This document shows, piece after piece, positions 25,095 through 44,043 of a stretch of 64,000 bases of DNA. Under the pieces are notes generated by a model. That model did not search any database, had not been told where the DNA came from, and saw only the letters and a list, made by a program, of their open reading frames with translations. Location of the stretch: assembly GCA_035714365.1 (NCBI GenBank), contig DASTMB010000037.1, positions 159,647-223,646 on the forward strand, written 5' to 3'. Each line of letters starts with the position of its first letter. Positions within the stretch are counted from its first letter, which is position 1. The position numbers and the translations under genes are program-made. The DNA comes from Mycobacteriales bacterium (GTDB lineage Bacteria > Actinomycetota > Actinomycetes > BP-191).

Positions 25095-28000
25095 CTAGCG
25101 ATCGAGTGGTTCCGGCAGGTCGCGGGCGGTGTCGTCGCGCAGGAGGAGCTGCGCGTGCTCGACGGCGGCGAGTTCCGGGTGCTCTGGGTTGGCTCGGTCG
25201 AGGGGGCCGAGGGGCTGGTCGGGGTCGGTGATGCCGTGGGTGAGGCGGTAGGTCTCGATGGTGTGGGCGGCGTGGCGCCAGATGCCGCGCCGGTAGGGGT
25301 CGTGGGGGCGGGGGCCGAGGGTGGTGGTGAGGTAGCGGGGCGGGTTGTGTTCGATGTTGGTGAGGCGTTGGTGGGCGCGGTGGTTGATTTCGTCGCGGGC
25401 CTGGTCGGCTGCGCGCCGCTCGGGGGCGGTTGCGTGTTCGTGGTGGAGCCGCTGCTGTTCGTGGGCTTCGAGGGCGTGCGCGCGTTGCAGCGCGGCGGTC
25501 TCGCGTTGGGTGGCGTGCTGGACGCGGCGTTGGGCGGCGCGGAGTTGGTGGGCGTGGTCGCGGCGGCGGCGTGGGTGGAGGCGTTGCCGGCGGGGCTGGT
25601 CACGTAGGTGGCCTATGGCCTCGTGGCCGGCGGCGGCGTCGAGCGCGGCGTTGGCGGCGTCGGTGTAGGCGGCGGCGAGTTCGGCGCGCCGGTTGGGGAG
25701 CATGGCGCGCTGGGCGGCGTCGCCGCGGCTGACGGCGGCGCGGAGCTGGTCGTCGGTGGCGTCGGCGAGGGGCCGGTTGTCCTCGTCGATGGGCGTGGCG
25801 GCGCCGGTGGCGTCGCGGTGCTGGTGGAGGGCGTGGCGGGCTTGGTGCCAGTCGTCGTGCCGGGCGGGCGGGTCGGCGCTGGTGGGGGCGGGGCCGAGGG
25901 GGCGGTGGTCGGTGTCGGGGATGTGCCAGCGGTCGCGGTAGGTCTGGATGTGGCCGGCGGCATCGCGCCAGGTGCGGCGGCGGGTGACGTTGTTGGTGGG
26001 TGGGGGGCCGAGGGCGGTGAGGTGGGGGGCGGTTCCGGCGCGGGCGGCGCGTTCGGCGGTGATGCCTTGGCGGCGGAGGTGGTCGCGGTAGGCGGCGTCC
26101 GCGTCGTCCGCCGCGGCCGGGCTGTGGTGGGGGTCGGCGGCGTGGTCGGCGTGGGTGGCGCGCAGGACGGCGGTGGTGTTGTCGCCGGGGCCGCCGTCGT
26201 GGAGGTCGAGGGCGGCGCGTTGGGCGCGGGAGCGGGTCGCGGCGGTGGTGAGCTGGGTGAGCGGCGGCGGGTCGCCGGCGGGTGGGTGGTGTTCGGCGCG
26301 CAGGAGCTGGGTGTCGTGGTCGCGGTCGGGGTTGGTGGCGTAGAGCTGGGTGTGTTGGCGGCCGCGGGAGAGGGTGGTGTAGAGGCTTTCCCGGTAGAGG
26401 GCGTCACCGGCGGCGTCGACGAACACGTGCTCGGCGCTGAGCCCTTGGGCGCGGTGCAGGGTGTGCGCATAGCCGTGGTCGAGGCCGCCGCGGCGCAGGT
26501 AGCGGGCGCTGACCTGGTGGTGGGTGCCGTCGGGGAGGGTGACGGTGAGGGTGCCGGCCTCGGGGTCGACGGTGGTGACGGTGCCGAGGTCGCCGTTGAG
26601 CAGGCCGCTGTTGCGGTAGTCGTTGCGCCGCGCGGCGACGAGGTCCCCGACGGCGAAGCGGCGTTCGCCGAGCGGGCCGGCGGTGACGACGAGGTCGGGG
26701 CCGGTGAGCAGCCCGGCGTCGGTGAGGCGGGCGCGGGCGCGGGTGTTGAGGTCGGCGACGGCGCGGCGGCGGGTGGCGAGCATGACGTGCGCCTCGGGTG
26801 ATTCAGCCAGAATCCGGGCGGCCGGTGTGCCGGTGCTGGTGGCGGTGGTGTGGAGGGCGGTCCACCAGTCGGTGACGAGCTGGTCGCGGGCGGCGTCGAC
26901 GTCGGGTTGCACGGTGACCCGCCCGTGGTCGACGTAGGCGTCGAGGGCGGCGTGGACGACGGGCGGGGCGGCGTCGCGGATGGCGCCCAGCGCGGCCCGT
27001 TCCCAGCCGTGGACTTGGCGCATGTTGCGGGTGAGGGTGACCGGCGCGAGTCGGTGCGCGAGGGCCCGGAACAGCCCCCCGGCGTCGATCTCGGGGAGTT
27101 GCCGGTAGTCACCGACGAGGACGAGCTTCGCCTGGTCCCGCCGCGCGTAACCGTGCAGGGCGGCGAGATCGCGGCTGCCGAGCATCCCGGCCTCGTCGAC
27201 GACGATCACGCTGCCGGGCGGCATCGGCCCGTGCCGTGGGTCGTCGAGCTCGGCGAGGAGGCGGGTGATGGTCCAGGTGGTGATGCCGGTGGCGTCGGTG
27301 AGCCGGGCGGCGGCGCGGGCGGCGACGGCGGCGCCGACGACGTGGTGCCCGCCGGCGGTCCAGGCGTCGTGTACGGCGCCGAGGAGGTGGGTCTTACCGG
27401 CGCCGGCGACGCCGATGACGACCTCGACTCCGGCGCCGCCGGTGAGGAGCCGGACGGCGGCGAGTTGCTGCTCAGGGTTGAGGTGGTGCCGTTCCAGGGT
27501 GGCGCCGAGGACGGCGGCGGGCACGACCCCGAGCCCGTCGTGGGCGCGGTCGGCGGCTTGGGTGATCACGGTCCGTTCGAGGTGGAGGAGGTCGGTGGTG
27601 GTGTAGCGGGTCTCGCCGTGCCCGGGAGGGCGGGTGTCGCCGTGGCGTTCGTCGGGGACTGCGCGCAACGCCACCACGTCGCGGTGCCGGAGGAACGCGG
27701 CGGCGTCCGCCTCGATCGCCTCGATCGGGTCGCCGTCGACGCGCGCGACGCAGAGTGCTTGGACGACGTCGCGGCGGTGGAAGTGCGACGCGGCGGCGGT
27801 GAGCCCAGTCGGGGCGAGCATCGCCGCCTGCTCCTGCGCCCGGTCGACCGGCGCCCGGTGGTGGCGGTGCAGCAGCGCGTAGCGGGTGGGGGCGGTGAAC
27901 CCGAGCTGGTCGGCGCGGGCCTGCCAGTCGGCGGCGAGGCGGTGCTGGTCGTAGGGGTGCTTCCGGCGCCGCGTGTCCAGGGTGGCGACTTGCGCGGCAC

Positions 28001-28766
28001 GCGGCCCGTCGAGGCCGAGTTCGGCGAGGCGGGCCTGGATCTCCTCCGCGCGTTGCGAGAAGGCGCGCAGCACCTCGGCGGGGATGCCCTCGACCTCGGA
28101 CAGGCCGTTGCCGCGCACCGTCCAGGCGAGGCCGAGGTCGCGCACGTTGTGCCGGAGTTGGGAGCGGTAGAGCATCCCCGCGGTCTTGGCTTCCCGGAAC
28201 AGGGCGCGCCCGTCGACGGCGTACCAGCGGCCGTCACTGCCCTGCACGGTGTTCGCGGTGACGACGTGGGTGTGCAGGTGCGGGTCCCCAGCACGGGAGA
28301 CGCGGTGTCGGAACGCCGCGCCGACGAGGCCCCGGCCGGGTTCGACCGTGACCCCGTCCTTGCCGCGCCGGACGTGGCCGGCGTGCCGGTCGAGGTAGCC
28401 GAGCGCGGCGGCGACAGCGTGGTCATGCGCGGCGCGGATCTGCTCCGCGAGTTCGGGCTGCCCCAGCGCGGCGAGGAGGCTCAGCGACTTCGGGGCGTTG
28501 AACGTGAGGTCGTAGCCGCGGACCCGGCCGGCGCGGCGCTGCGCGAGCAGGTCCACGCCGGTGCCGGGCTGGTAGCCATCGAGGAGGGTACGCAGCGGGT
28601 CGGCGGTCACTTCCCCGGTGAGGCCGAGCTGGTGCCGGCCGGCGCCGACCCAGTAGCCGGGCGCCTCCCCGGCGCCGAGGTAGTACGCCTCGGTGGTGCG
28701 CGCCACCTTGTTCAGGTAGTAGTCCTCGCCGCGGCCGCCGGCGCCGAGGACCTGAATGCTCAACAT
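25095..28766 (-). CDS. MobF/TrwC-family relaxase fused to a C-terminal helicase (TraA/TraI-like conjugative relaxase)
   Basis: N-terminal Tyr pairs (EDYYLNK ... EAYYLGAGEAPGYWVGAG). Three-His motif GDPHLHTHVVTANTVQ. Helicase Walker A VVIGVAGAGKTHLLG and Walker B VIVVDEAGML. Long C-terminal region. Confidence 0.85.
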   Translation of the reverse strand: MLSIQVLGAGGRGEDYYLNKVARTTEAYYLGAGEAPGYWVGAGRHQLGLTGEVTADPLRTLLDGYQPGTGVDLLAQRRAGRVRGYDLTFNAPKSLSLLAALGQPELAEQIRAAHDHAVAAALGYLDRHAGHVRRGKDGVTVEPGRGLVGAAFRHRVSRAGDPHLHTHVVTANTVQGSDGRWYAVDGRALFREAKTAGMLYRSQLRHNVRDLGLAWTVRGNGLSEVEGIPAEVLRAFSQRAEEIQARLAELGLDGPRAAQVATLDTRRRKHPYDQHRLAADWQARADQLGFTAPTRYALLHRHHRAPVDRAQEQAAMLAPTGLTAAASHFHRRDVVQALCVARVDGDPIEAIEADAAAFLRHRDVVALRAVPDERHGDTRPPGHGETRYTTTDLLHLERTVITQAADRAHDGLGVVPAAVLGATLERHHLNPEQQLAAVRLLTGGAGVEVVIGVAGAGKTHLLGAVHDAWTAGGHHVVGAAVAARAAARLTDATGITTWTITRLLAELDDPRHGPMPPGSVIVVDEAGMLGSRDLAALHGYARRDQAKLVLVGDYRQLPEIDAGGLFRALAHRLAPVTLTRNMRQVHGWERAALGAIRDAAPPVVHAALDAYVDHGRVTVQPDVDAARDQLVTDWWTALHTTATSTGTPAARILAESPEAHVMLATRRRAVADLNTRARARLTDAGLLTGPDLVVTAGPLGERRFAVGDLVAARRNDYRNSGLLNGDLGTVTTVDPEAGTLTVTLPDGTHHQVSARYLRRGGLDHGYAHTLHRAQGLSAEHVFVDAAGDALYRESLYTTLSRGRQHTQLYATNPDRDHDTQLLRAEHHPPAGDPPPLTQLTTAATRSRAQRAALDLHDGGPGDNTTAVLRATHADHAADPHHSPAAADDADAAYRDHLRRQGITAERAARAGTAPHLTALGPPPTNNVTRRRTWRDAAGHIQTYRDRWHIPDTDHRPLGPAPTSADPPARHDDWHQARHALHQHRDATGAATPIDEDNRPLADATDDQLRAAVSRGDAAQRAMLPNRRAELAAAYTDAANAALDAAAGHEAIGHLRDQPRRQRLHPRRRRDHAHQLRAAQRRVQHATQRETAALQRAHALEAHEQQRLHHEHATAPERRAADQARDEINHRAHQRLTNIEHNPPRYLTTTLGPRPHDPYRRGIWRHAAHTIETYRLTHGITDPDQPLGPLDRANPEHPELAAVEHAQLLLRDDTARDLPEPLDR

Positions 28767-28886
28767 GGCCGAGCCTGTGGTGGCCGACGAGCTCCGCTGC
28801 GCTGCTGAACGTCACCCGCCGGTCCGGCGTCCGCTACCCGCGTCGCCGTGTCCGAAGCGCGGTGGCCGGCGGCGGGTGGTGTGGGC

Positions 28887-29188
28887 GGTTGACCAGCTCC
28901 GCGCGGTGCGCCGCCGCCGGCGTTGACCACCGCCCTGCCGGGGCCGGCATCGCCAGATGCAAGGGTGTACCGGGTCGGGCGGCCGAAGGCCGCAGCGATC
29001 GGGCGTGCCGGGGACAGGGCAGCGGGTGCGGTCGGCGGCGGCGTCCGGGTCGGCGGTGAGGGTCGTGGTGGCATGGCGGGCAGGGTCGGCGGCGGGGTTG
29101 ACCGGGCGTTGACCAGGGCGGCGCGGCGATCGATTCAGCGTGAGTCGGGGCATGCGAAAGCCGCCGCCCCGGGTTGACCAGGGCGGCG
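28887..29188. repeat. Iteron cluster of five GTTGACC(A/G)(G/C) repeats (two identical 16-mers GTTGACCAGGGCGGCG), plus one GATTCAGCGTGAGTC dyad variant at 29132-29146; candidate oriT region
   Basis: Direct repeats at 28887, 28922, 29098, 29108 and 29171. Located immediately upstream of the relaxase start, between relaxase and ssb. Confidence 0.5.
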
Positions 29189-29209
29189 GCTCTCGTCGCG
29201 AGGGTGCGG

Positions 29210-29644
29210 CTACGCGGCAGTGGGCTCCCGCCGCGTCTCGGTCCCGGCGGCGGGCTGCGTGGTGTGCTGGTCGGCACCGGCGCGGGTGCTGCGCTGGATC
29301 GTCACCGTCGCCATGCGCAGCGACGCGGCGACCTCGTCCGCGTCGATCTCGTACCGGTACTGCTTCACACCGTCCTTGTCGTCCCAGGACCGCTGCACGA
29401 GCCGCCCGTGGACGACGACGCGGCTGCCGCGCTCCACGGACTCGGCGACGTGCTCGGCCAGCGCCCGCCACGCCACCACGTCGATGAACGTCGTGTTCGC
29501 GTCCTTCCACTGCTTGCTGTTCGCGTCGTAGTACCGCTGCGACGACGCGAGGCGGAACCGGCACCAGGCGTGCCCGCCCGGCGTGTAGCGCAGGTCCGGG
29601 TCGGCCACAACGTTGCCGGTCATGGTGATGCTGCTGTCACTCAT
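29210..29644 (-). CDS. ssb: Single-stranded DNA-binding protein
   Basis: OB-fold SSB signature: TGNVVADPDLRYTPGGHAWCRFRLASS ... DVVAWRALAEHVAESVERGSRVVVHGRLVQRSWDDKDG. Confidence 0.85.
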   Translation of the reverse strand: MSDSSITMTGNVVADPDLRYTPGGHAWCRFRLASSQRYYDANSKQWKDANTTFIDVVAWRALAEHVAESVERGSRVVVHGRLVQRSWDDKDGVKQYRYEIDADEVAASLRMATVTIQRSTRAGADQHTTQPAAGTETRREPTAA

Positions 29645-29714
29645 GGCTGTGCTCCTTCTCCTGTGGGGTGCCGGGGCGGGCGCCGTGCCTGCCCGCCCCG
29701 GCCGGCGGGGTCGG

Positions 29715-31523
29715 TCAGGCGACGCGGCGGGACCGCGACGCCCGGGTCGGCTTGCTGGTGCGCTTGGGGTTCTGCGGCTTGGGCTGCTGCCGGGTGCCGG
29801 ACTTGCGGTTGCGCCGCTTCGCCAGCGACACCGGCTCGGTCGGCTCCGCGTCCGGCTCGGCCCCCGGCTTGTCCTCGGTCGGCTCCGGCTCGCTGCCGGG
29901 GTCCGCGTCGGGCTCGGGCTGCTCGTCGCCGGTCCACGTCCGCGCGTCGTCGCTGCCCGCGTTGGCGGCGGTGGTGCCGTCGGGGTCCGGCTGCTCGGCG
30001 GGACCGTCGATCAGGGCGCGCTCGGCCGGGCTGGGCTCGTAGCCGAGGGCGGTGAGGAGGTCGAAGTGGCGCTGCTCCTGGGCGTCGAGTGCCCGCACCG
30101 GATAGTAGGTGCCGCTGGGCACCCACTTCTCGACCAGGGCGAAGCACACCGCGAGCGCGGCCCGCCACAGGTTCTGCTTGCTCACCTGCGCGTAGGTGAC
30201 GAGCGGTTCGGCGTCGTCCTCGTCCGGTTCGGGCAGGCCGAGGAGGGAGCGCGCGTCGGTGCTGAGGTCGTACTCGTTGGCGTAGCCGACGATCTGCTGC
30301 GCGACGTGCTCAGTGACGAGGGCCTGCGGCGGCTTGCCGGTGGTGAGCAGGGTGCAGACGAAATCGGCGCGCCGCTGCTTGGCGGCGCGCAACTCCTCCC
30401 GCTGCTGCTCCCGGCGGGTCTGCTCGGCCTCGCGCTGGGCCTGCTCGGCCTCGGCCTTCTCGCGCTGCGCCTTCTGCTCGGGCGTCTCCTCGGCGGGGAC
30501 CGCCTTCGCCTTCCCGTTCACCGTCGCCGCGCTGCTCGCGCCGTCGGCGGCGGCGGTGCTGGCGGTGGCGGGCTGGTGGCGGGTGGGGTCGGTGCAGACG
30601 TAGACGACCTGGGCGACGCTGCTGACGGTGGCGGCGTGGCAGGGCTCGCTGGCGTGGTCGTCCACCGCGACGTTGACCTGCCCGGGGAGGCTGCCCAGCG
30701 GCTTCTCGGGCCGTCCGCTCCACGTGCCGTACGGCGGGTACGGCACGAGGGTGAGGTTCTGCTTCTTCAGCGCGGCGATGGTCTTGGCGACCCTGCGCTC
30801 AGCCTCCTCGTCGGCGACGGCGTTGCGCGCGGCGTTGACGATGTAGCCGCGCCCGGCGTTGAACGCCTTGAGCAGACGCGTCTGGTCCTTGATGCGGGCG
30901 AGTTCGAAGCCCTCCTCGAAGGTGATCTGCTCCTTGATGAGCGCGGCGAGCACGTCGTCGGGGAGGCGGAGGATGGACAGGCGGCGCTGGACGGAGGGCT
31001 GCGAGAGGCCGACCAGGGCGGCAATGTCCTCCTGCTTGCGGATGCCGTGGTCCTGGGCGAGGGAGGCGAGTTCGCGGGCCTCCTCGACCGGCGTGAGGGC
31101 CTTGCGGTGCAGGTTCTCGGCGATGCGGTCCACGTCCCTGGCGAGCGTGTCGGCGCCGTCGATCACTTCGCAGGTGGCGGTGGGGATGTTCGCAGCGGTG
31201 AGGGCGAGGTAGCGGCGCTCCCCGAACACGATCAGGTAGCCGCCGTCGGGGTCGGGCTTGACGCGCAGCGGCGTGAGCAGTCCGTGCTTCGTGATCGACG
31301 CGGCGAGGGCGGCGATGTCGCCGTAGTCCTCCCGCTTGTTCTTCGGGTCGGGGTGCAGGTCGCTGAGCGGGATCTGCACGAACGTCCGCTCGACCGGCTG
31401 CGCGGGCGGGGCGCCGTTCGGGCTGGTCGCGCGGGTCTTGCCGTTGGCGCGGGGCGTGCCGTTGCTGCTGGTGGTGCCGTTGGTGTTGGTCTTGCTGGGT
31501 CGGTTCTTGGTGGTGGTCGCCAT
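29715..31523 (-). CDS. ParB-like nuclease-domain (ParB/Srx) protein with a long acidic, Pro-rich C-terminal tail
   Basis: ATG at 31523 with AAGGAGAA RBS. ParB N-domain IPLSDLHPDPKNKRE ... LLTPLRVKP ... IVFGERRYLA. Mid-protein coiled-coil segment (EQKAQREKAEAEQAQREAEQTRREQQREELRAAKQRR). Acidic C-terminus. The upstream 170 codons of the track ORF are Arg/Pro junk. Confidence 0.75.
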   Translation of the reverse strand: MATTTKNRPSKTNTNGTTSSNGTPRANGKTRATSPNGAPPAQPVERTFVQIPLSDLHPDPKNKREDYGDIAALAASITKHGLLTPLRVKPDPDGGYLIVFGERRYLALTAANIPTATCEVIDGADTLARDVDRIAENLHRKALTPVEEARELASLAQDHGIRKQEDIAALVGLSQPSVQRRLSILRLPDDVLAALIKEQITFEEGFELARIKDQTRLLKAFNAGRGYIVNAARNAVADEEAERRVAKTIAALKKQNLTLVPYPPYGTWSGRPEKPLGSLPGQVNVAVDDHASEPCHAATVSSVAQVVYVCTDPTRHQPATASTAAADGASSAATVNGKAKAVPAEETPEQKAQREKAEAEQAQREAEQTRREQQREELRAAKQRRADFVCTLLTTGKPPQALVTEHVAQQIVGYANEYDLSTDARSLLGLPEPDEDDAEPLVTYAQVSKQNLWRAALAVCFALVEKWVPSGTYYPVRALDAQEQRHFDLLTALGYEPSPAERALIDGPAEQPDPDGTTAANAGSDDARTWTGDEQPEPDADPGSEPEPTEDKPGAEPDAEPTEPVSLAKRRNRKSGTRQQPKPQNPKRTSKPTRASRSRRVA

Positions 31524-31606
31524 GGTGGCGTTCTCCTTGGTGAGAGTGGGTTGGGTGGGGTGGCGCGCGGGTGGCGGCGGTGCGCGGGCGGTTCGGCGGG
31601 GGCGGG

Positions 31607-32545
31607 TCACGGCGTCGCCTGGGCGGTGAGGGGGTCGGTGGGGGTGCCGGTGGTGGCGGCGATGCGGTCGAGGACGGCCCGGGCGGTGGTGGTGACGGCG
31701 CGGGCGCTGGCGGCGAGGACGTCGAGGTCTCCGGCTGCCCACTGCGCGACGTAGGGGAGGGAGTAGTCGTCGCTGGGCAGGCCGCTGGCGTGGCAGACGA
31801 TGTAGGCGACGGACTCGGCTTCGACCTCGCCGCGTTCGCGGGGGGTGGTTCCCTCGGCGTGCAGGAGGACGTGCGCGAGTTCGTGGGCGAGGGTCTTGCA
31901 CGCCTGGGCGGCGCTGAGGTCGGCGCGGACCCGGACTTCGCGGGTGGCGAAGTTGGCCCACCCGTTGGCGTGGCCGCAGTCGCCGCGATTCAGCGCGTAT
32001 CCGGCGTCGCGGATCTGCGCGGCGAGGGCGTCCCACAGTCGGCCGGGGTCGGCGCCGTCGAGGAGGAGCGGCGGCACGTCGGGGATGGGGTCGCCGTCGG
32101 TCTGCGACACGTCGAACACGTAGGCGATGCGGAAGCCGCGCAGCCGTCGGCGGGGCGGGGTGGCGTCGGGCCTCTCGCCGGTGCTGGCGCTGGGGGTGCT
32201 CTGGTCGTCGTCGGGCTGGTCGATCCGGTACCGCAGGGGCGCGAAGATCGCGATGCCGCGCTCTCCCTTGCGGACCTGCCGTCCGACGCGCTGCCAGGTG
32301 CGGTATCCGGCGACGCGGGTCGCGTCGGGGCGCTGCATGACGATCAGGAGGAGGTTGTGCAGCGAGTAGTCATGGAACCGGGCGGCGGCGGTGAGCATCG
32401 CCTGCCACTGCTGGCCGTGGACTAGCCCGGCGACGCGTTCGGTGAGTTGCTCGTGGAGGGCGGCGATTCGGTCCGAATCGCGAACGGCGGCGGCGACGCG
32501 TCGGCCGCGCTGCGCGGCTCGGGCGCGGGTTGTGGTGGTAGCCAC
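31607..32545 (-). CDS. ArdC-like antirestriction protein (N-terminal ssDNA-binding ArdC domain + C-terminal zincin-like metallopeptidase domain)
   Basis: FHDYSLHNLLLI (ArdC-N). HELAHVLLH HExxH motif in the C-terminal domain. Confidence 0.75.
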   Translation of the reverse strand: MATTTTRARAAQRGRRVAAAVRDSDRIAALHEQLTERVAGLVHGQQWQAMLTAAARFHDYSLHNLLLIVMQRPDATRVAGYRTWQRVGRQVRKGERGIAIFAPLRYRIDQPDDDQSTPSASTGERPDATPPRRRLRGFRIAYVFDVSQTDGDPIPDVPPLLLDGADPGRLWDALAAQIRDAGYALNRGDCGHANGWANFATREVRVRADLSAAQACKTLAHELAHVLLHAEGTTPRERGEVEAESVAYIVCHASGLPSDDYSLPYVAQWAAGDLDVLAASARAVTTTARAVLDRIAATTGTPTDPLTAQATP

Positions 32546-32953
32546 GAGTGGAGTCCTCCCGTCACTGGGCCTGCGGACCGGGTGTGGAGGCGTCCTGACG
32601 GCCGCCTCAAAAACCGGGTCTCCCGACGCAGCAGTGGGGCGCGGGCGCAGGGGCCCCGGGCAAAGGACGGCCGGAGGCCGAGGCGCGGCGAAATAAGCGG
32701 AGCCGGCCGAGGGCCGGCGCAGCGCGTCGCGCCGGTCCTTTGTCTGGGTGGGGCGCCCGTGCCACGCTGAGGCGGCGGGAGAGCCGGTTTGAGGGCTCTT
32801 TCAGCGCCGCCCGTAGGGCGGCTCCACATTGCCCCGCAGGGGCCGCCGCCGCAGGCGGCGCTGCTCTGTTCGGGTGGTTGTCGGGAGCTGCCGCGACATT
32901 GCGTGCCGCGTCGGCGAACCCATCACGGCGGCGGGACCGCATTCCGGCCGCTG

Positions 32954-33000
32954 CTGGTCAACAGGTGGTCAAAGGCCGGTCAATGGCTGGTCAATGGCTG
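32954..33000. repeat. Array of (C)TGGTCAA repeats, the reverse complement of the GTTGACCAG iteron, including an 11-bp tandem GGTCAATGGCT x2
   Basis: CTGGTCAAC, TGGTCAAAG, then CGGTCAATGGCTGGTCAATGGCTG. Same motif as the 28887-29188 array but inverted; sits upstream of the LysM/BTAD gene. Confidence 0.5.
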
Positions 33001-33093
33001 TGGGGACGCTCGCGGTGAAAGGAATCCGCGGCTGCTGCGTGTGGTCGTACGGGCGCCGGCTAGCGCGGCAATAGGTGTTACGGGGGAACAGAC

Positions 33094-36000
33094 ATGAGCG
33101 GGTGGCGTAGGTCTCGGTATGCCGTCGCGGCGGCGCCGGCTCGGCGTCGGTCCGGGCCGGGGTTGCTGGCGTGGCTGCGGCGGCTGCTGCGGGCGCTGCT
33201 GTCGCTGGCTGGGCTCACCGCACTAGCTGGGGGCGTGCCGGTGGCGTTGTGGCGGGTCGCCGGCTGGCCGCTGCCGCACCGGGTACCGGCGTGGGCGGCG
33301 CTGCGCCGGGGCCTGACCGAGCCGGTCGACGACCGGGTGCTGCTCAACGTGATCGTCGTCGTCACGTGGCTGGCGTGGGCGTACCTGCTGGTGACGATCC
33401 TGGTCGAGATCGCCGCCGCGGTGGCGCCGCGCCGAGTTCGCTGGCATGTCCCCGGCCCCGGCGCGGTGATCGCCCGCCGGCTCATCTCGGGACTGCTCGC
33501 CGCGTCCGCGGCGGTGCCGGTGGTGGCGCTGCCCGCATCCGCCGCCGCCCCACCGGCGCGCCCACCCGCCGCGACCAGCGTCCTCAACGCCGCCGCGCCG
33601 ACCGCCGGCCCCTCCACCGGCGCCGCGGCGCGGCCGGACACCTACACCGTCCGCCCCGGGGATACCCTGTGGGGCATCGCCGCCCACGAGCTCGGCCCCA
33701 CCTCGTCACCGGCGCAGGTCGCGGCGCGCTGGCCCCGCTGGTACGCGGCGAACCGCGGCCGCCCCCAACCCGCCGGCGGCGGGGCACTCACCGACCCGAA
33801 CCGGCTACTGCCCGGCTGGCAACTCCGCGACCCCGACACCCCCGCCCCACACCACACGCCGCCGGCGCGGGCGACCCGCCGCCGCACCACACCGCCCCCC
33901 TCCCCGGCCCCGGCCCCGGCGCCGCACCGCCCGGCGGCCCGGCACACCCCGCCACCCGCGGCGCGCCCCGAGCAGCCCTCCACGCCCGCCGACGCGGCAC
34001 CGACGCGGCACTCCGGCCGCCCCGACGACCAGCCAGCGAACCGGTCGGCGATCCCCGCCGCCCTCGTGCCGATCGGCGGCAGCGCCCTGTTCGCCGCCGC
34101 GGTCGTCTCCACCCTCACCCGGGCGCGACGGCGGCGCGGCGCCCCCGCGCTGCCCGCCCCGCAGGCGGCGGCGCGGCTCGAAACCCTGCTCCGGGTCGCC
34201 GCCGAACCCGACGACCTCACCGACCTGCTCCGCGCCCTCGACCTCCTCGCCGCCCGCCTCGCCGACACCACCATCGACGTGCCACCGATCCTCGGCGCCC
34301 GGCTGCGCCCCACCGCCGTCGACCTACTCCTCGCCGCCACCCGCACCGACGCACCCGCACCGTTCCGCCCCCTCGACGGCGGGCGCGTCTGGACCGTCCG
34401 CCGCACTCAGCTCCCCGCCGTCCGCGACGACGCCACCCCCTGCCCACTACCCACGCTCGTGCCCGTCGGCCGCGACACGGACGGGCTCGTGCTGCTCCAC
34501 CTCGAACACGCCGGCGCCGTCGCGGTCACCGGCACCCCCGACGCGCGGCGACGCCTGCTCACCAGCATCGCCGCCGAACTCGCCGTCGCCCCCTGGCCCA
34601 CCTGGGTCGACGTCACCACCCTCGGCCTACCCCGCGACCTCACCCGCCTCGACCCCGAACGCCTCCACCCCGCCACCACCCTCGACGAGCCGACGCTGCG
34701 CACCCTCACCGCCGCCGACACCCCCACCAGCACCGACCCGGAGGCGCCGGCCGCCGCCCGTATCCGCGCCCCCTGGCAGGACCGCCCCGCGCCCCGCGTC
34801 CTCCTCGCCGCCACCCCACTACCCGAAGCCGCCCTCGCCGCGCTCGGCGAGCACGCCACCCGACCCGGCTCCACCCTCACCGCCCTGACCGCCGGCGAAT
34901 GGCCGCACGCCCGCTGGACGTTCCACATCGACGACGACGGCACCCTCACCGTCCCCGAACTCGGCCTGCGGCTCCACGCCGTCACCGTCACCACCACCCG
35001 GCTCCCGCAACTCGCCGAACTCCTCGAGAACGCCCGCGCCGCCACCACCGACGACGACGACGAGGACCCGCGCGCACCCGCCGCGGCCACCAGCACCCCC
35101 GCCGACGACGCCGGGCAGGCGCCGCCCGACCCGGCCGCAGTCGACCCGGACCCGCAGCCCGCGCCGCCGCAGACCAGCCCCGCCGATTCAGCCCGAATCG
35201 ACGCGAACCCCACCCCCGCCGCCACCACGACCGCGGCCCCCGCCGCCACGGTCACCGACCCGACCCCCGCCGCCGGCCACGCGGTCGACGGCACCGCCGC
35301 GTTGGCCCTCGCGGACCCGGGCGACGACCTCGACCGCGCCGTCGCCGCCTACCTCACCGCCGCGCCCGGCACCGTCCAAGTCCGCGGCTTCGCCGGCCCC
35401 GCCGTCACCGCCCCCGGCACCATCGAATCCCGCCGCGTCGCCACCCTCACCGAACTCGTACTCCTCCTCGCCGCCAACCCCACCGGCCTCTACCCCACCG
35501 ACATCGCCGCCGCCCTATGGCCCGACCGCACCGTCAGCTCCCAAACCATCAGCGCCACCCTCTGCCGCGCCCGCGGCTGGCTCGGCACCGCCACCGACGG
35601 CACCCCACACCTCCCCCCGGCCGGCGCCGGACGAGTCCGTCTCTCCCCCACCGTCCTCGTCGACTGGCAGCTATTCACCGCCCTGGTCGACCGCGCCCGC
35701 CGCCACCCCGACCGGGCACCCGCCGACCTCACCACCGCCCTGCACCTCATCAACGGCGGGTTCCTCACCGACCGCCCCGACGGCCGCTACCACTGGCTCA
35801 CCGACACCGACCTCGAACACACCCTCCCCGCCGCCGTCCTCGACGCCGCGCACCAACTCGCCCGCCACCACCTCGACACCGGCAACCCCGCCGCCGCCCG
35901 CGATACAGCCCGAATCGCGCACCGCGTCGACGACTGCGACGAACGCCCCTGGCGCGACCTCATGGAAGCCGAAGCCGCCCTCGGCCACCCCCAGCGCGTC

Positions 36001-36117
36001 GCCCAACTCCGCGACCAACTCATCCGCCACCTCGACTACGAAGTCGAAGAAGACCTCACCCCTGAAACCGTCCAACTCCTCGACCGGCTCCTCCCACGCG
36101 GGCAGGCCGGCGCGTAG
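33094..36117 (+). CDS. Large membrane protein with a LysM domain and a C-terminal BTAD (SARP-like bacterial transcriptional activator) domain
   Basis: RBS GGGGGAA before the ATG. TM helices near the N-terminus (LLNVIVVVTWLAWAYLLVTILVEIAAAV). LysM (YTVRPGDTLWGIAAHELG). Pro-rich linker. C-terminus resembles AfsR/DnrI-type BTAD helices (WQLFTALVDRARRHP ... LHLINGGFL ... RDLMEAEAALGHPQRVAQLRDQL). Confidence 0.65.
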   Translation: MSGWRRSRYAVAAAPARRRSGPGLLAWLRRLLRALLSLAGLTALAGGVPVALWRVAGWPLPHRVPAWAALRRGLTEPVDDRVLLNVIVVVTWLAWAYLLVTILVEIAAAVAPRRVRWHVPGPGAVIARRLISGLLAASAAVPVVALPASAAAPPARPPAATSVLNAAAPTAGPSTGAAARPDTYTVRPGDTLWGIAAHELGPTSSPAQVAARWPRWYAANRGRPQPAGGGALTDPNRLLPGWQLRDPDTPAPHHTPPARATRRRTTPPPSPAPAPAPHRPAARHTPPPAARPEQPSTPADAAPTRHSGRPDDQPANRSAIPAALVPIGGSALFAAAVVSTLTRARRRRGAPALPAPQAAARLETLLRVAAEPDDLTDLLRALDLLAARLADTTIDVPPILGARLRPTAVDLLLAATRTDAPAPFRPLDGGRVWTVRRTQLPAVRDDATPCPLPTLVPVGRDTDGLVLLHLEHAGAVAVTGTPDARRRLLTSIAAELAVAPWPTWVDVTTLGLPRDLTRLDPERLHPATTLDEPTLRTLTAADTPTSTDPEAPAAARIRAPWQDRPAPRVLLAATPLPEAALAALGEHATRPGSTLTALTAGEWPHARWTFHIDDDGTLTVPELGLRLHAVTVTTTRLPQLAELLENARAATTDDDDEDPRAPAAATSTPADDAGQAPPDPAAVDPDPQPAPPQTSPADSARIDANPTPAATTTAAPAATVTDPTPAAGHAVDGTAALALADPGDDLDRAVAAYLTAAPGTVQVRGFAGPAVTAPGTIESRRVATLTELVLLLAANPTGLYPTDIAAALWPDRTVSSQTISATLCRARGWLGTATDGTPHLPPAGAGRVRLSPTVLVDWQLFTALVDRARRHPDRAPADLTTALHLINGGFLTDRPDGRYHWLTDTDLEHTLPAAVLDAAHQLARHHLDTGNPAAARDTARIAHRVDDCDERPWRDLMEAEAALGHPQRVAQLRDQLIRHLDYEVEEDLTPETVQLLDRLLPRGQAGA

Positions 36118-38739: not shown

Positions 38740-39822
38740 CTACTCGTTCGCGGCCGACCGCAGGCGCGCCAGCGACCGGGCCAGCAGCCGCGAGACGTGC
38801 ATCTGGCTGATGCCGACGCGCGCGGCGATCGCCGACTGGGGCAGCCCCTCGAAGAACCGCAGCCGCAGGATGTCCCGCTCCCGCTGCGGCAGCGCGGACA
38901 GCGCCGGCACCAGCCAGGAACGCTCCTCCACCACGCGGTAGCCGTCCTCGACGGCCGGCGTGTCGTGCCAGGCGCCGGTGTCGTCGTCGTCGCGCGGCCG
39001 GTCGAGCGAGTCGACATGCAGCGCCGACCGCGCCTCGAGCGACTCGATCACCTGCTCCTCGGTCGCGCCGAGGCGCACGGCGAGCTCCTTCGGCGTGGGG
39101 GTGCGGCCGAGCTCCTGGGTGAGGTCCTCGCTCGCCGCGCGCGCGGCGAGGTACAGCTCCTGCACCGGGCGGGCGACGTGCAGCGTCCAGGCGTGGTCGC
39201 GGAAGTACTTCTTCAGCTCGCCGACGATCGTCGCCTGGGCGAACGTCGCGAACTTGTTGCCGCGCCCCGCGTCGAACCGCTGCGCCGCCGTCACCAGCCC
39301 GACGTACGCCACCTGCCGCAGGTCCTCGGCCGGCTGGCCGCGCCCGGTGAACCGGGCGGCGAGGCGCTCGGCGAGGTCCCGGTGCGTCCGGACCAGCGTC
39401 TCCACGTCGTCCGAGTGCGGCGGCACGGCGCGCAGCCCGGGCGCCGCGCCGGGCACCGGCTGCGGCGCCACCTCCGCCGGCGGGGCGATGTCCTCGACGC
39501 ACGCCGCCAGCCCCGGGTCGGCCGCCAGCAGCACCTCGGCGACGTGCGCGGCGGGGTGCGCGAGCACGAACCGCCGCCCGGCGCTCTCCACGATCTCGCG
39601 GGCCTCGCCGAGGGTGCGCACCGCCCGCGGGGCCAGCGCCGTCACCGCCGCCAGGTCCAGCACGACGAGCGGCGCGTCGGCGCGGCAGGCGCTGGCGACG
39701 CAGGCGTCGACCAGGACGCCGCTCTCTCCGTCGATCTCCCCCGAGACGTCGATGTGGGCGACGCCGTCCCGTCCGCTCACGAGCCGCAGCTCGGCCTGCA
39801 TCCGCATGCCGGGTGATCCCAT
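38740..39822 (-). CDS. Fusion of an N-terminal STAS (anti-sigma-factor antagonist) domain to a SigB/SigF-type group-3 sigma factor
   Basis: STAS-like N-terminus (LRLVSGRDGVAHIDVSGEIDGESGVLVDACVASACRADAPLVVLDLAAVTALAPRAVRTL). Sigma regions 2-4 (DLRQVAYVGLVTAAQRFDAGRGNKFATFAQATIVGELKKYFRD ... LPQRERDILRLRFFEGLPQSAIAARVGISQMHVSRLLARSL). Exact start among M1/M6/M8 is uncertain. Confidence 0.65.
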   Translation of the reverse strand: MGSPGMRMQAELRLVSGRDGVAHIDVSGEIDGESGVLVDACVASACRADAPLVVLDLAAVTALAPRAVRTLGEAREIVESAGRRFVLAHPAAHVAEVLLAADPGLAACVEDIAPPAEVAPQPVPGAAPGLRAVPPHSDDVETLVRTHRDLAERLAARFTGRGQPAEDLRQVAYVGLVTAAQRFDAGRGNKFATFAQATIVGELKKYFRDHAWTLHVARPVQELYLAARAASEDLTQELGRTPTPKELAVRLGATEEQVIESLEARSALHVDSLDRPRDDDDTGAWHDTPAVEDGYRVVEERSWLVPALSALPQRERDILRLRFFEGLPQSAIAARVGISQMHVSRLLARSLARLRSAANE

Positions 39823-39900
39823 CCGATCACGCGGCCGCCGGCGATGCCGGAGCCGCGACCCCGACGAGCGCCGTGCTCTCGACCTCGTTCTCCGTGCTGC

Positions 39901-41968: not shown

Positions 41969-42985
41969 ATGACGCTCCCCACCGCCCCGCTGGGCACGAC
42001 CGGTCTCGACATCACGCGCGTGGGCTTCGGTGCCTGGGCCATCGGCGGCGGGGGCTGGGTCGGCGGCTGGGGCAGCCAGGAGGACGACGAGTCGGTCGCC
42101 GCGATCCGCGCCGCCGTCGAGCGCGGCGTCAACTGGGTCGACACCGCCGCGATCTACGGCCTCGGCCGCTCCGAGGAGGTCGTCGGGCGCGCGCTCAAGG
42201 ACATCCCCGACAACGACCGCCCGTACGTGTTCACGAAGTGCGGGCTCACCTGGGACGACAACGGCGACGGGCCGCACAACGTCATGGCGCCGGACTCGGT
42301 GCGCCGCGAGGTCGACGCGTCGCTGCGCCGCCTCGGCGTGGACCGGATCGACCTGTACCAGGTGCACTGGCCGCCGACGGACGGCACGCCGCTGGAGGAG
42401 TACTGGGCGGTGATGGCCGAGCTGAAGGAGTCCGGCCAGGTCCGCGCGATCGGCCTGTCCAACCACGACGTGAAGCAGCTCGCGCAGGCGGAGGAGGTCG
42501 CGCACGTCGACTCGCTCCAGCCGCCGCTGTCGCTCATCGCGCGCGACGCCGCCGCCGACGTGATCCCGTGGTGCGCCGAGCACGGCACCGGCGTCGTCGT
42601 CTACAGCCCGATGCACTCCGGCCTGCTCACCGGCGCGATGACGCCGGAGCGGGTGGCGTCGCTGCCGGACGACGATTGGCGGCGTTCCAACGACGACTTC
42701 ACCGGCGACAAGGGCCGCGCCAACATGGCGCTCGCCGACGCGCTGCGGCCGGTGGCCGAGCGGCACGACGTGCCGGTCGCGGCGGTGGCGGTGGCGTGGA
42801 CGCTGGCTTGGCCGGGCGTCACCGGCGCGATCGTCGGCGCCCGCAACGCCGGCCAGGTCGACGGCTGGCTGCCTGGCGCGTCGTTGCGGCTGACGGACGA
42901 GGACCTGGACGAGCTGGCGGCGGCGGTGCGCCGCACCGGCGCCGGCAGCGGGCCGCTCGACCCGCGCGCCGAGCCGCGCGGCTGA
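41969..42985 (+). CDS. Aldo/keto reductase
   Basis: [30 protein letters not shown] and IGLSNH motifs. Confidence 0.85.
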
Positions 42986-43005
42986 CCGCCGTGGCCCCGC
43001 GCACG

Positions 43006-44043
43006 ATGCGGGCCGCCTACCTGCCCGGGGGACGGGTCGTCGACCTGCGGGAGATCGAGGTCCCGGTACCGGGGCCGGGCGAGCTGCTGCTGCGGATGGG
43101 CGCGTCCACCATCTGCGGCTCCGACCTGCGGGCGATCTACCGGGAGCACCTGGGCCACGGCGCGGAGGCGTACCAGGGCGTCGTCGGCGGGCACGAGCCG
43201 TGCGGCGAGGTGGTGGAGGCGGGGCCTGGCGTCACGGCGTTCGGGCCGGGCGACCGGGTCGTCGTCTACCACATCGCCGGCTGCGGCTCCTGCGCCGACT
43301 GCATGGACGGCTACGACATCTCCTGCCAGTCGCCGGAGCGGAAGGCGTACGGCTGGCAGCGCGACGGCGGCCACGCCGACTTCATCCTCGCGGACGAGCG
43401 GTCGCTGGTCCGGCTGCCGGAGGAGCTGTCGTTCCTCGACGGCGCCAGCGTCGCGTGCAGCGTCGGCACGGCGTACGAGGCGCTCTGCCGGATCGGCGTC
43501 TCCGGCCGCGACGCGCTGCTCGTCACCGGCCTCGGCCCGGTCGGGCTGGCCGCCGGGCTGCTCGGCAAGGCGATGGGCGCGACGACGGTGATCGGTGTCG
43601 ACCCCGCGCCCGAACGCCGCGCGCTCGCGGTGGGGACCGGCGCCGTGGACGAGGCGGTGCCCGCGGACGCGAACGCCGCCGCCGAGGTGCGCCGGCTCAC
43701 CGGCGGGCACGGCTGCGAGACGGCCGTCGATTGCTCCGGCGCGGCGTCCGGCCGGCTCACCGCGGTGGACGGCGCGCGGCGCTGGGGACGGGTGGCGTTC
43801 GTCGGGGAGGGCGGCCGGGTCGACCTCGACGTCAGCCAGCAGCTCATCCACCGCAACCTCACCGTGCTCGGGTCCTGGGTGACCAGCCGGTGGCGCACCG
43901 CCGAGCTGCTGGAACGGCTCGTAAGGTGGGGGCTGCACCCCGAGGTGCTGGTGACCCATCGGTTCCCGCTCGAGCAGGTGGCGGAGGCGTACGCAGTGGC
44001 CGACAGCGGCGTGGCGGGCAAGGTCGCGGTGGTCGGGAGGTGA
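43006..44043 (+). CDS. Zinc-dependent alcohol dehydrogenase (MDR family)
   Basis: [21 protein letters not shown] structural-zinc motif, and Rossmann fold [10 protein letters not shown]. Real start is an internal ATG of the longer track ORF. Confidence 0.85.

Follow-up and report, generated by a model that had tools for sequence, protein, structure and literature searches.

The spacer between ssb and the MobF relaxase gene is very probably the oriT of this element. A hairpin followed by GTGT, resembling the nic sites of F and R388, is its probable nic site and lies among short heptamer repeats, and the phased copies of these repeats have a geometry that makes them look like SARP-activator boxes on promoters. 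An oriT spacer that combines a nic site with SARP boxes is the best explanation that we can offer for the locus, and we consider it somewhat better than an even bet. The window analyzed was a stretch of 64,000 nucleotides from a Mycobacteriales genome, which was compared with three independent syntenic relatives (L003, L004, and L005).

Genes and gene order at the locus

The relaxase gene (25095-28766, minus strand) encodes a TrwC-type MobF relaxase-helicase of 1223 aa (Pfam TrwC, E 1.2e-83; AAA_30; UvrD_C_2), and its translated N-terminus contains tyrosine pairs (DYYLNKV...AYYLG) and the motif HLHTH. As in MOBF systems, the predicted nic site lies beside the gene for a cognate relaxase of the TrwC family that has paired catalytic tyrosines and a histidine triad. 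Three further genes are located on the minus strand, namely ssb (29210-29644; Pfam SSB, E 8.5e-31), a parB-like gene (29715-31523; 602 aa; ParB_N and HTH_ParB), and an ardC-like gene (31607-32545; ArdC-N and a metallopeptidase-like region); the LysM-SARP gene (33094-36117; 1007 aa; BTAD and a weak LysM match) is located on the plus strand. Pfam agreed with each of the gene identities proposed in the first-pass annotation (relaxase, SSB, ParB-like, ArdC, and LysM/BTAD). The ParB-like protein had just 4 relatives below E 1e-10 in a search of 5.8 billion proteins.

Because the relaxase, ssb, parB, and ardC genes all lie on the minus strand, the spacer at 28.8-29.2 kb, which had been described as lying upstream of the relaxase gene, is also downstream of ssb. 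The proposal that ssb-parB-ardC constitutes a leading region fits both the position and the strand polarity of these genes. The relaxases of the window and the three relatives are just 59-64% identical. A search of the 8.2-kb region against a plasmid database revealed no match, and Rfam gave no match anywhere in 28.6-33.2 kb. A metagenome scan with the relaxase N-terminus yielded relatives of at most 58% identity in the best segment (at most 53% for matches of more than 110 residues), and heptamers were found in none of them.

The predicted nic site and predicted direction of transfer

The predicted nic site (28947-28969, plus strand) consists of the hairpin GCATC-gcca-GATGC (28947-28960) followed by AAGGGTGT/A, with the nick predicted between 28968 and 28969. 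The predicted substrate on the plus strand is 5'-GGCATCGCCAGATGCAAGGGTGTACCGGGTC-3', with a putative cut after GTGT. A 57-nt block is invariant in the window, L003, L004, and L005, the rest of the spacer being scrambled; the nic region differs among the four by one loop base only, and the stem is kept. On the strand that templates the relaxase gene, the layout comprises 5-bp arms, a 4-nt loop, 8 nt ending in GTGT, and a purine.

The nic site of R388 is GCGCACCGAAAGGTGCGTATTGTCT/A (PMC4814116) and that of F is TTTGCGTGGGGTGT/GG (PMC2504302); in R388, the arms must be 5 nt and the loop 4 nt long, and position +1 must be occupied by a purine (PMC4176350). The stretches preceding the cut are AAGGGTGT/A here, GTATTGTCT/A in R388, and GTGGGGTGT/G in F. 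The spacer has the following sequence features of a MOBF nic site: a stretch of 8-9 nt ending in GT(G/C)T with a purine at +1, an inverted repeat with arms of approximately 5 bp and a short loop located 5' of the predicted cut on the transferred strand, and conservation among relatives in a position from which the relaxase gene would be transferred last.

A loose pattern (5-bp hairpin, G[TC][GC]T, and purine) occurs 0.32 times per kb and is therefore not diagnostic; the stricter TGC-anchored form alone was enriched. TGC-N3-6-GT[GC]T-purine was found 70 times in 513 kb, and 17 of these 70 occurrences were on the template strand at most 600 nt upstream of relaxase genes, compared with approximately 2 expected by chance according to our own estimate. 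Approximately a dozen distant MobF loci carry the extended form (A/C)A(G/C)(G/T)(G/T)GT(G/C)T on the same strand, 50-200 nt from the start codon. The nic layout and these same-strand motifs at distant MobF genes together suggest that the plus strand would be the one transferred. The relaxase would recognize GCATC-N4-GATGC and the 8 nt that follow on the plus strand, and would cut after GTGT at 28968/28969. The plus strand would enter the recipient 5' end first, bringing in the template strand of ssb, parB, and ardC early and the relaxase gene at the very end. Leading-region genes are reported to be templated by the T-strand (PMC11541004), as these three then would be.

A second inverted repeat, GCGGCC-gaa-GGCCGC (28979-28993), is located 10 nt 3' of the predicted nick; its GCGGCC/GGCCGC stem is invariant in the window and the three relatives, with GAA or GGA as the loop. 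This repeat was also considered as the one 5' of a nic site on the relaxase-sense strand, with the relaxase gene leading. That reading was dropped because the reverse complement reveals an R388/F-type hairpin with GTGT/purine and because the distant loci show the same arrangement on the template strand. A genome scan with the nic block gave a lone match in a Pantoea plasmid, cut off at the locus end and lacking context, which is probably due to chance.

The first-pass annotation had put forward the repeats next to the relaxase gene as a candidate oriT. The spacer is the best oriT candidate; a role of the repeats as its nic determinant was not supported. The nic-like element is a different and better conserved sequence. 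The locus offers a testable nic sequence, namely the hairpin plus AAGGGTGT/A, and the simple motif TGC-N4-(G/T)GT(G/C)T-purine, placed ahead of the relaxase gene, fits about a dozen more metagenomic elements. Our literature search turned up no description of an oriT or of a regulatory circuit in actinobacterial MobF/T4SS-type elements.

Distribution and conservation of the heptamers

The heptamer GTTGACC (GGTCAAC on the other strand) occurs 14 times in the window, compared with 6.6 +/- 2.6 expected, and TTGACCAG occurs 7 times, compared with 0.53 expected, with 5 of the 7 within the two intergenic regions. The five plus-strand copies of GTTGACC reported near the relaxase gene were found at 28888, 28922, 29097, 29108, and 29173, and the identical 16-mers GTTGACCAGGGCGGCG were confirmed at 29108-29123 and 29173-29188. 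The inverted array reported with an 11-bp tandem is real (32953-32996), but it contains four reverse-complement units rather than two; these are GGTCAAC, GGTCAAA, GGTCAAT, and GGTCAAT, spaced exactly 11 bp apart. Clustering is far above chance both at 28888-29179, in the spacer between ssb and the relaxase gene, and at 32956-32995, where the orientation is inverted. Pairs of GGTCAA spaced by 11 bp are confined to these two clusters in the 64-kb window and to the two equivalent places in L003, and triple 11-bp-phased heptamers occur, among approximately 20 loci scanned, only in the inverted array of the window and in the array of L004.

Two of the heptamers, the single copies of GTTGACC at 28888 and 28922 (28888-28928, plus strand), are located in the interval that runs from the relaxase start to the nic hairpin. 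The repeats, whose conservation in homologous elements the earlier annotation proposed to check, recur in all three independent syntenic relatives. In each of these, one heptamer lies at a distance of 5 nt from the nic hairpin, and L005 has GGCCAAC three times in this part of the spacer. In L005, GGCCAAC occupies all five positions and GGTCAAC occurs nowhere. This joint change of all L005 sites suggests that a single factor reads every heptamer site.

The designation of the repeats as iterons was not borne out. Plasmid replication iterons are repeats of approximately 17-22 bp located at a replication origin beside a rep gene, whereas the units here measure 7 + 4 bp, and the genes flanking the arrays are ssb, relaxase, ardC, and LysM-SARP, with no rep gene adjacent.

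The ssb gene is followed by a terminator-like hairpin (29155-29195, minus strand) with 18-nt arms that are 89% complementary, and the heptamer at 29173-29179 lies in its loop. The corresponding loops contain GGTCAAC in L003, GGTCACC in L004, and no heptamer in L005. A reading of the arrays as promoters leaves this loop heptamer and the single heptamers beside nic unexplained. Between the terminator and the first array, a conserved motif GATTCAGCGTG (29132-29142; C(A/G)CGCTGAATC on the minus strand) is present in the window and all three relatives.

Phased arrays as candidate SARP-box promoters

Array A (29082-29114, minus strand) is a SARP-box promoter candidate that faces the relaxase gene. 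It comprises GGTCAAC at 29114-29108 and 29103-29097, a 9-nt spacer, and the -10-like hexamer GACCCT at 29087-29082. Its spacing is identical in L003, L004, and L005, where the spacer sequence varies and CGAC(C/G)CT is invariant; the repeat is present in two copies in the window and L003, in three in L004, and in two (GGCCAAC) in L005. Array B (32956-33010, plus strand), the candidate facing the LysM-SARP gene, comprises GGTCAA(C/A/T) at 32956, 32967, 32978, and 32989, a 9-nt spacer, and GACGCT at 33005-33010. It lies approximately 100 bp upstream of the LysM-SARP gene in the window and in L003, where its counterpart upstream of the orthologous gene reads GGTCAAT three times, 9 nt, and GACATT. 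In six arrays from four lineages, the 9-nt gap from the heptamers to GAC(C/G/A)(C/T)T is identical and the spacer sequence is variable.

Two or more heptameric direct repeats with an 11-bp periodicity are characteristic of SARP boxes, and such repeats (7 + 4) were found at both arrays, the tandem copies in this set of elements numbering 2-4. A classical SARP site measures 11 bp and overlaps the -35 region (PMC5930380, PMC10972967), and the afs box spans -40 to -19, with CACTGT as its -10 (PMC10936776). The -10-like hexamers here begin with G, which is non-consensus. An ATG is conserved exactly 6 nt past the array A hexamer in three of four relatives; this is the position expected for a transcription start.

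A possible leaderless upstream ORF (28760-29074, minus strand) begins at the conserved ATG 6-7 nt after the -10-like hexamer, crosses the nic region, and has a stop that overlaps the relaxase start (ATGTTGA). The frame and the overlap are the same in the window and the three relatives, with lengths of 49-104 codons. It was rejected as an accessory gene: its codon-position GC (0.81/0.81/0.69) is not gene-like compared with that of the relaxase gene (0.81/0.53/0.93).

We propose that the GGTCAAY repeats would be binding sites of an OmpR-type winged-helix activator. Its protomers would bind head-to-tail on 11-bp units that take the place of a -35 element, and would bring RNA polymerase to the weak -10 (GACNNT). 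Array A would turn on the relaxase gene, and array B would turn on the activator's own gene, resulting in positive autoregulation. The arrays mirror each other because the relaxase and LysM-SARP genes that they face run in opposite directions, and the earlier suggestion that the mirrored array is a second site cluster is supported, as a cluster for the same factor. The activator may also join the relaxosome by way of the single heptamers beside the nic hairpin.

Alternatively, an ECF-like sigma factor encoded by the element might read the heptamer as its -35 element, or a host sigma-70 might use the opposite-strand TTGACC as a -35 box. Genes for proteins with Sigma70_r2/r4 domains occur close to the relaxase gene in the window and all relatives, TTGACC is similar to TTGACA, and GGTCAAC...CGAC bears a loose likeness to the AAC...CGT pattern of ECF promoters. 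However, a single -35 box requires no 2-4 helically phased copies, and AAC and CGAC are separated by 8 or 19 nt, compared with a usual ECF spacing of 16-17 nt. No sigma-like gene has GG(T/C)CAA upstream, so a signature of autoregulation is missing; a sigma-70 consensus scan found no promoter at the arrays, including none that uses TTGACC; and array A, read on the TTGACC strand, would be directed into the terminal part of ssb, at its 3' end. We consider a sigma factor quite unlikely to be the reader of these sites.

Purely relaxosomal sites are another possibility: an accessory protein, ParB-like or other, would bend or melt oriT and bring the two ends of the leading block together, and the sites would play no part in promoters. 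The heptamers do cluster around nic, with 5 of the window's 20 GGTCAA hexamers within 443 bp and a like enrichment in L003, L004, and L005. Moreover, a heptamer abuts the nic hairpin in the three relatives, the L005 sites all change together, and R388 provides a precedent in its 11-bp-periodic stbDR arrays, which are located beside oriT and bound by StbA (PMC3098194). Nevertheless, nothing in such a role calls for the constant 9-nt gap that separates the repeats from a conserved -10-like hexamer in all six arrays. In addition, array B lies 4 kb away from nic and immediately upstream of the SARP gene, and the units are direct repeats rather than palindromes. ParB, which had appeared to be the obvious binder, does not covary with the sites: its recognition helix SQPSVQRRL is identical in the window, L003, and L005 despite the differing L005 sites, and the helix of L004 differs (SQPTVHRLL) with the sites unchanged. 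A purely relaxosomal function is, in our judgment, unlikely, though less so than a sigma factor.

The absence of covariation also bears on whether the arrays are parS-like centromere sites of the ParB-like protein, flanking its operon for partition or spreading. A gene with ParB_N and HTH_ParB domains does lie between the two arrays. However, parS sites are usually palindromic and those here are short, non-palindromic direct repeats, and L003 retains both arrays though a deletion took the N-terminal domain of its ParB. We rate a centromere as the least probable of the alternatives.

The LysM-SARP protein as the putative activator

The putative heptamer binder, and the most likely one, is the C-terminal SARP module of the adjacent LysM protein. 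In the AF2 model (pLDDT 93.7), an OmpR-type winged helix and a BTA domain make up the last 275 aa, residues 733-1007 or thereabouts. The best Foldseek matches in the PDB were the AfsR SARP domain (8K60, 8HVR) and EmbR (2FEZ), over approximately 255 columns with TM 0.61-0.67; a protein with a SARP domain is encoded alongside the arrays, and the fold matches cover both of its subdomains. The winged helix was undetected by Pfam or by PDB sequence search and was revealed by structure and profile alone, the family profile giving strong matches to LysM domains and weak ones to the winged helices of CadC and ToxR. The SARP domain of L003 is 77.6% identical, with the identical recognition helix TISATLCRAR, and L003 has the same heptamer. 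The homologue search gave no close match for a SARP gene of the L005 genome, GCA_975249425.1, and distant LysM-SARP homologues located inside Tad-pilus operons have no analogous arrays. The SARP module is carried on a large protein with N-terminal hydrophobic segments.

To our knowledge, SARP activators are known almost solely from antibiotic-pathway control, and the literature search found no paper tying them to conjugative DNA processing. The SARP-box reading would link these activators to the control of conjugative DNA processing.

A conserved hairpin upstream of ardC

An imperfect hairpin of approximately 190-200 nt (32605-32795, plus strand) is located upstream of ardC and is a candidate single-strand (T-strand) promoter or priming signal. 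Its 3' arm contains TTGTCT (32740-32745), 17 nt, and CACGCT (32763-32768), a weak match to -35/-10 that reads TTGGCT-16-CACGCT in L003, and the A of the -10-like hexamer (-11 A) is bulged in the fold. The hairpin is 92% identical to that of L003 over 212 nt, compared with 69-75% for the neighboring genes, and has no Rfam match. Its folding energy is -85.1 kcal/mol (z -6.3) for the plus strand and -68.5 kcal/mol (z -3.2) for the minus strand, a preference shared by L003, and the hairpin is the top plus-strand folding outlier in 20-40 kb. In a control scan, the two strands of this DNA commonly differed by approximately 9 kcal per 200 nt (1 sd); the preference is no more than modest when base composition is taken into account, and the strand-preference argument was downgraded accordingly. 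As in Frpo/ssi elements, a long hairpin on the predicted T-strand lies in the leading region upstream of T-strand-templated genes; this polarity follows from the nic assignment. If the hairpin were a single-strand promoter, leading-region expression from the incoming strand would extend to high-GC Gram-positives.

A bolder and rather improbable reading combines two roles: the LysM-SARP protein, possibly membrane-anchored, would be a master switch as well as a relaxosome factor, and the hairpin would be the first actinobacterial Frpo-like promoter to be described, driving ardC-parB-ssb from the incoming strand. The LysM domain would sense a cell-wall or mating-contact cue, and the SARP boxes would let the protein switch on both its own gene and the relaxase gene; it would also sit beside the nic hairpin.

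Comparison with known systems

In R388 (TrwC) and F (TraI), as here, a TrwC-family relaxase gene adjoins oriT, and the site has 5-bp arms, a 4-nt loop, a stretch ending in GT(G/C)T, and a purine past the cut (PMC4814116, PMC4176350, PMC2504302). In both plasmids, and by prediction here, the strand that is cut serves as template for the relaxase gene, which is consequently the last to be transferred. The hairpin-to-nick distance is 8 nt here (predicted) and 9 in R388 and F, the stem GCATC/GATGC is unlike theirs, the host is a high-GC actinobacterium, and no trwA- or traY-like accessory gene lies between oriT and the relaxase gene.

The afs box at the afsS promoter of S. coelicolor, bound by AfsR, likewise consists of tandem direct repeats of 7 conserved + 4 variable bp (PMC10936776). 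SARP boxes overlap the -35 region at a fixed distance from a weak -10 (xACxxT), as the arrays may do (PMC5930380, PMC10972967), and a protein with the winged helix and BTA fold is encoded alongside. Rather than antibiotic biosynthesis, the candidate targets here are the gene of a conjugative relaxase and that of the activator itself; moreover, unlike in classical SARPs, the SARP module is C-terminal in a 1007-aa LysM protein, the repeats number at most four, and the consensus is GGTCAAY. The stbDRs of R388 are also short direct repeats with an 11-bp periodicity (9 + 2) at a promoter beside a MOBF oriT; additional copies lie at other promoters, and StbA regulates both transcription and conjugation (PMC3098194). 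StbA, however, belongs to a different protein family, represses, and acts in segregation, whereas the arrays here resemble activator boxes.

Frpo/ssi elements of F-like leading regions are, similarly, long imperfect hairpins on the T-strand (predicted here), the present one lying upstream of ardC-parB-ssb (PMC11541004). Frpo/ssi stems carry -35 and -10 elements with a bulged -11 A, to which the weakly matching hexamers and the bulged A of the present hairpin may correspond, and Actinobacteria are not among the Frpo/ssi reports in PMC11541004. Finally, the membrane-bound one-component activators ToxR and CadC resemble the LysM-SARP protein in having an OmpR-type winged helix, hydrophobic segments (N-terminal here), and an extracytoplasmic-type domain (LysM here), but the domain order of the LysM-SARP protein is reversed, with the sensor-like domain first and the DNA-binding domain last, and a BTA domain is added.

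Repeat arrays in two intergenic regions

The minus strand of the window, whose G+C content is 73.7%, carries a block comprising the genes for a TrwC-type MobF relaxase-helicase of 1223 aa (25095-28766), ssb (29210-29644), a parB-like gene (29715-31523), and ardC (31607-32545), from which a LysM/BTAD gene encoding 1007 aa (33094-36117) diverges. The heptamer GTTGACC/GGTCAAC concerns two non-coding stretches: the 443-bp ssb-relaxase spacer and the 548-bp divergent region between ardC and the LysM/BTAD gene. The repeats reported in the first-pass annotation are real, with 14 copies in the window against 6.6 expected, five of them at 28888-29179, and both identical 16-mers exist. The sequence TTGACCAG occurred seven times (0.53 expected), five of the seven within the two spacers. 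The reverse-complement array was confirmed at 32956-32995 as four heptamers with exact 11-bp spacing. GGTCAA pairs 11 bp apart are confined to the two spacers across the window, and triple 11-bp-phased heptamers were found, among approximately 20 loci scanned, only in the array facing the LysM/BTAD gene (array B) and one relative's equivalent array.

The left side of the element carries genes for an AAA_10 ATPase, sigma-like regulators, and a trypsin-like protease, whereas chromosomal-looking genes (glycoside hydrolases, aldo-keto reductase) lie right of approximately 39.8 kb; an integrated element is probable, its leading block lying close to one end. At its apparent edge sits a gene (38740-39900, minus strand) in which an N-terminal STAS domain is fused to a complete sigma-70 (regions 2, 3, and 4). 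ARAGORN called a 79-nt tRNA-Arg (gcg) at 46056-46134, inside the long ORF called at 42894-46808, the GH2 domains of which stop well short of the tRNA. This ORF call is probably over-extended, and the tRNA could mark an integration site.

Conservation of the repeats in related elements

The ParB-like protein is rare, with four matches besides itself among 5.8 billion proteins. Relatives of the relaxase number three at 59-64% identity, with hundreds more below 50%. The gene order parB-ssb-spacer-relaxase is common to the contigs of the three relatives, L003, L004 (near-duplicate L001), and L005. Their spacers are mostly scrambled, and five features are retained: a hairpin 3' of ssb; C(A/G)CGCTGAATC as a short motif; a set of two or three heptamers at 11-bp intervals, then 8 nt of variable sequence, an invariant CGAC(C/G)CT, and CCCATG; an invariant block of 57 columns; and one to three additional heptamers ahead of the relaxase start. 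The second feature, which reads GATTCAGCGTG on the other strand, lies at 29132-29142 between the ssb terminator and the array facing the relaxase gene (array A), and is kept in all four elements. It has CACGCTGA in common with the -10-like region of a hairpin upstream of ardC.

When the repeats were checked in these homologous elements, the heptamers were retained in L003 and L004, with GGCCAAC in their place in L005. This variant occupies five of five positions in L005, and GGTCAAC is absent throughout, which argues for functional sites that are all read by a single factor. In L003, a deletion derivative, ardC and the ParB N-terminal domain are gone, and both arrays, the ardC-upstream hairpin, and the predicted oriT/nic block are still present; the apparent deletion (L003 7574-7760) fuses the first approximately 25 ardC codons to the parB helix-turn-helix region.

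Repeats were also observed upstream of the relaxase in distant MobF loci, as GTTACGCG pairs 11 bp apart (L011, approximately 9700-9950), CGTGGAC spaced 11-12 bp (L010, approximately 4480-4520), and a 20-mer present three times (L007, approximately 3850-4000). Such arrays may be general upstream of MobF relaxases, with the motif differing by element.

Predicted nic site and transfer polarity

The invariant block reads GCATC-gcca-GATGC-AAGGGTGT-A on the relaxase-template strand (window +, 28947-28969). The nic substrates of R388 and F are GCGCACCGAAAGGTGCGTATTGTCT/ATAGCC (PMC4814116) and TTTGCGTGGGGTGT/GGTGCTTT (PMC2504302), respectively. The R388 hairpin has 5-nt arms and a 4-nt loop of free sequence, its proximal arm and the single-stranded nucleotides after it are essential, and a purine is required directly after the cut (PMC4176350). 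The 28947-28969 block agrees with R388 in each of these respects, its distance from hairpin to predicted cut being one nucleotide shorter. A metagenome scan using the relaxase N-terminus yielded 21 distant loci, approximately a dozen of which carry a motif of the same type on the template strand, 50-200 nt upstream of the relaxase start; these include GCACG-cct-CGTGC-AAGTGTGT/G, GCACC-gaacg-GGTGC-AGGTGTGT/G, and GCATT-cccc-AATGC-ACATGTCT/G. The anchored pattern occurred 70 times in 513 kb, with 17 occurrences within approximately 14 kb of relaxase-upstream regions. A looser pattern was uninformative as a diagnostic.

On the basis of the R388/F-type layout and the motif in distant loci, we place the candidate nick between 28968 and 28969 on the + strand. 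An invariant inverted repeat, GCGGCC-N3-GGCCGC (28979-28993), lies 10 nt downstream of it on the leading side. The first-pass annotation was thus right to locate a candidate oriT in the ssb-relaxase spacer and wrong about the mechanism, the nic-like sequence being distinct from the repeats. Under this polarity it is the + strand that would enter the recipient, ssb, parB, and ardC leading and the relaxase gene coming last. The three leading genes would then be templated by the incoming strand, as reported for anti-defence and SSB genes of leading regions (PMC11541004). The earlier proposal that ssb, parB, and ardC belong to the leading region is supported by this polarity. Searching 596 Gb of reference genomes for GCATC-N4-GATGCAAGGGTGTA returned one exact match, in Pantoea sp. 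plasmid pAPP145_3 (L032 7944-7966), where the locus stops just past the match; this is probably chance.

A hairpin upstream of ardC

An imperfect hairpin of approximately 190 nt lies between ardC and array B (32605-32795; L003 7316-7525), with a + strand folding energy of -85.1 kcal/mol (z -6.3). It is 92% identical between the window and L003 over 212 nt, against 69-75% for the adjacent genes at the DNA level. The hairpin is single-copy, and an Rfam search with it returned no match. Both hairpins fold better on the predicted transferred strand (G.T versus A.C arm mismatches: 6 versus 0 in the window, 3 versus 2 in L003); however, a control showed that differences of similar magnitude between the strands are not unusual across this DNA, which leaves the strand argument modest. 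The 3' arm contains the -35/-10-like hexamers TTGTCT and CACGCT, separated by 17 nt, with the A at the would-be -11 bulged, in an orientation suited to ardC-parB-ssb transcription from a single strand. The hairpin is a tentative candidate for a priming signal or a single-strand promoter like Frpo of F-like leading regions, a role we consider possible but less likely than not.

The repeats as putative SARP boxes

In six of six arrays (relaxase side in the window, L003, L004, and L005; LysM side in the window and L003), the last heptamer is followed, after exactly 9 nt of unconstrained sequence, by GAC(C/G/A)(C/T)T. In array A (29082..29114, minus strand), an ATG lies 6 nt past this hexamer in three elements and 7 nt past it in the window. 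The 22-bp box of the AfsR-afsS complex covers -40 to -19, with CACTGT as the -10 element (PMC10936776). A consensus promoter scan of the region found nothing; the array promoters, if real, would be activator-dependent and non-canonical. The repeats are best read, from their arrangement, as SARP boxes. Array A points toward the relaxase gene and array B toward the LysM/BTAD gene, and the opposite directions of these targets explain the mirrored orientation without a pairing function. A role of the heptamers as oriT/nic determinant is not supported, the nic-like block being a separate sequence and the heptamers having a SARP-box layout.

An ORF at 29074..28760 (minus strand), with equivalents in L003, L004, and L005 (49-104 codons across the four elements), starts at the conserved ATG 6-7 nt past the -10-like hexamer, runs through the predicted nic site, and terminates at a TGA overlapping the relaxase start. 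Its codon-position GC is not gene-like; a leaderless upstream ORF that provides translational coupling is one possible reading.

The promoter model leaves over a heptamer inside the ssb terminator loop and single heptamers by the nic hairpin (5 nt off in three relatives). TrwA is a relaxosome accessory factor in R388, and by analogy the SARP-box-binding protein may double as such a factor. R388 StbA, which binds 11-bp-periodic repeats beside oriT and at other promoters (PMC3098194), is a further precedent.

Candidate binding protein

The family consensus of the LysM/BTAD protein's C-terminus carries the SARP sequence signature. AlphaFold modelled residues 733-1007 confidently (pLDDT 93.7), with the AfsR SARP domain and EmbR as the top PDB matches of the model (approximately 255 columns). 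The family profile gave strong matches to LysM domains and weak ones to the winged helices of CadC and ToxR. In L003, the SARP module is 77.6% identical, and the recognition helix and heptamer are the same. These findings point to the C-terminal module as the putative heptamer binder. ParB fits poorly as the binder: the window, L003, and L005 share one ParB recognition helix although the sites of L005 are different, and L004 has another helix with unchanged sites. The reading of the heptamer as the -35 box of an ECF-type sigma factor fits badly, because the spacing is poor, tandem copies are left unexplained, and none of the sigma-like genes is preceded by a heptamer.

Distant homologues of this LysM-SARP protein (approximately 30% identity; L027-L031) are each the product of the final large gene in a Tad-pilus operon (CpaF/TadA, TadB/C, TadE, prepilin peptidase). 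The operons adjoin genes for a T4SS coupling protein and for SLT (lytic-transglycosylase) and M23 hydrolases, suggesting that actinobacterial conjugative elements may carry Tad-type pili. This position argues that the family is part of actinobacterial conjugation machinery generally. The heptamer feature is real, and we judge the locus, from its sequence, to be an unusual combination of known kinds: a predicted MOBF oriT together with putative SARP-dependent promoters.
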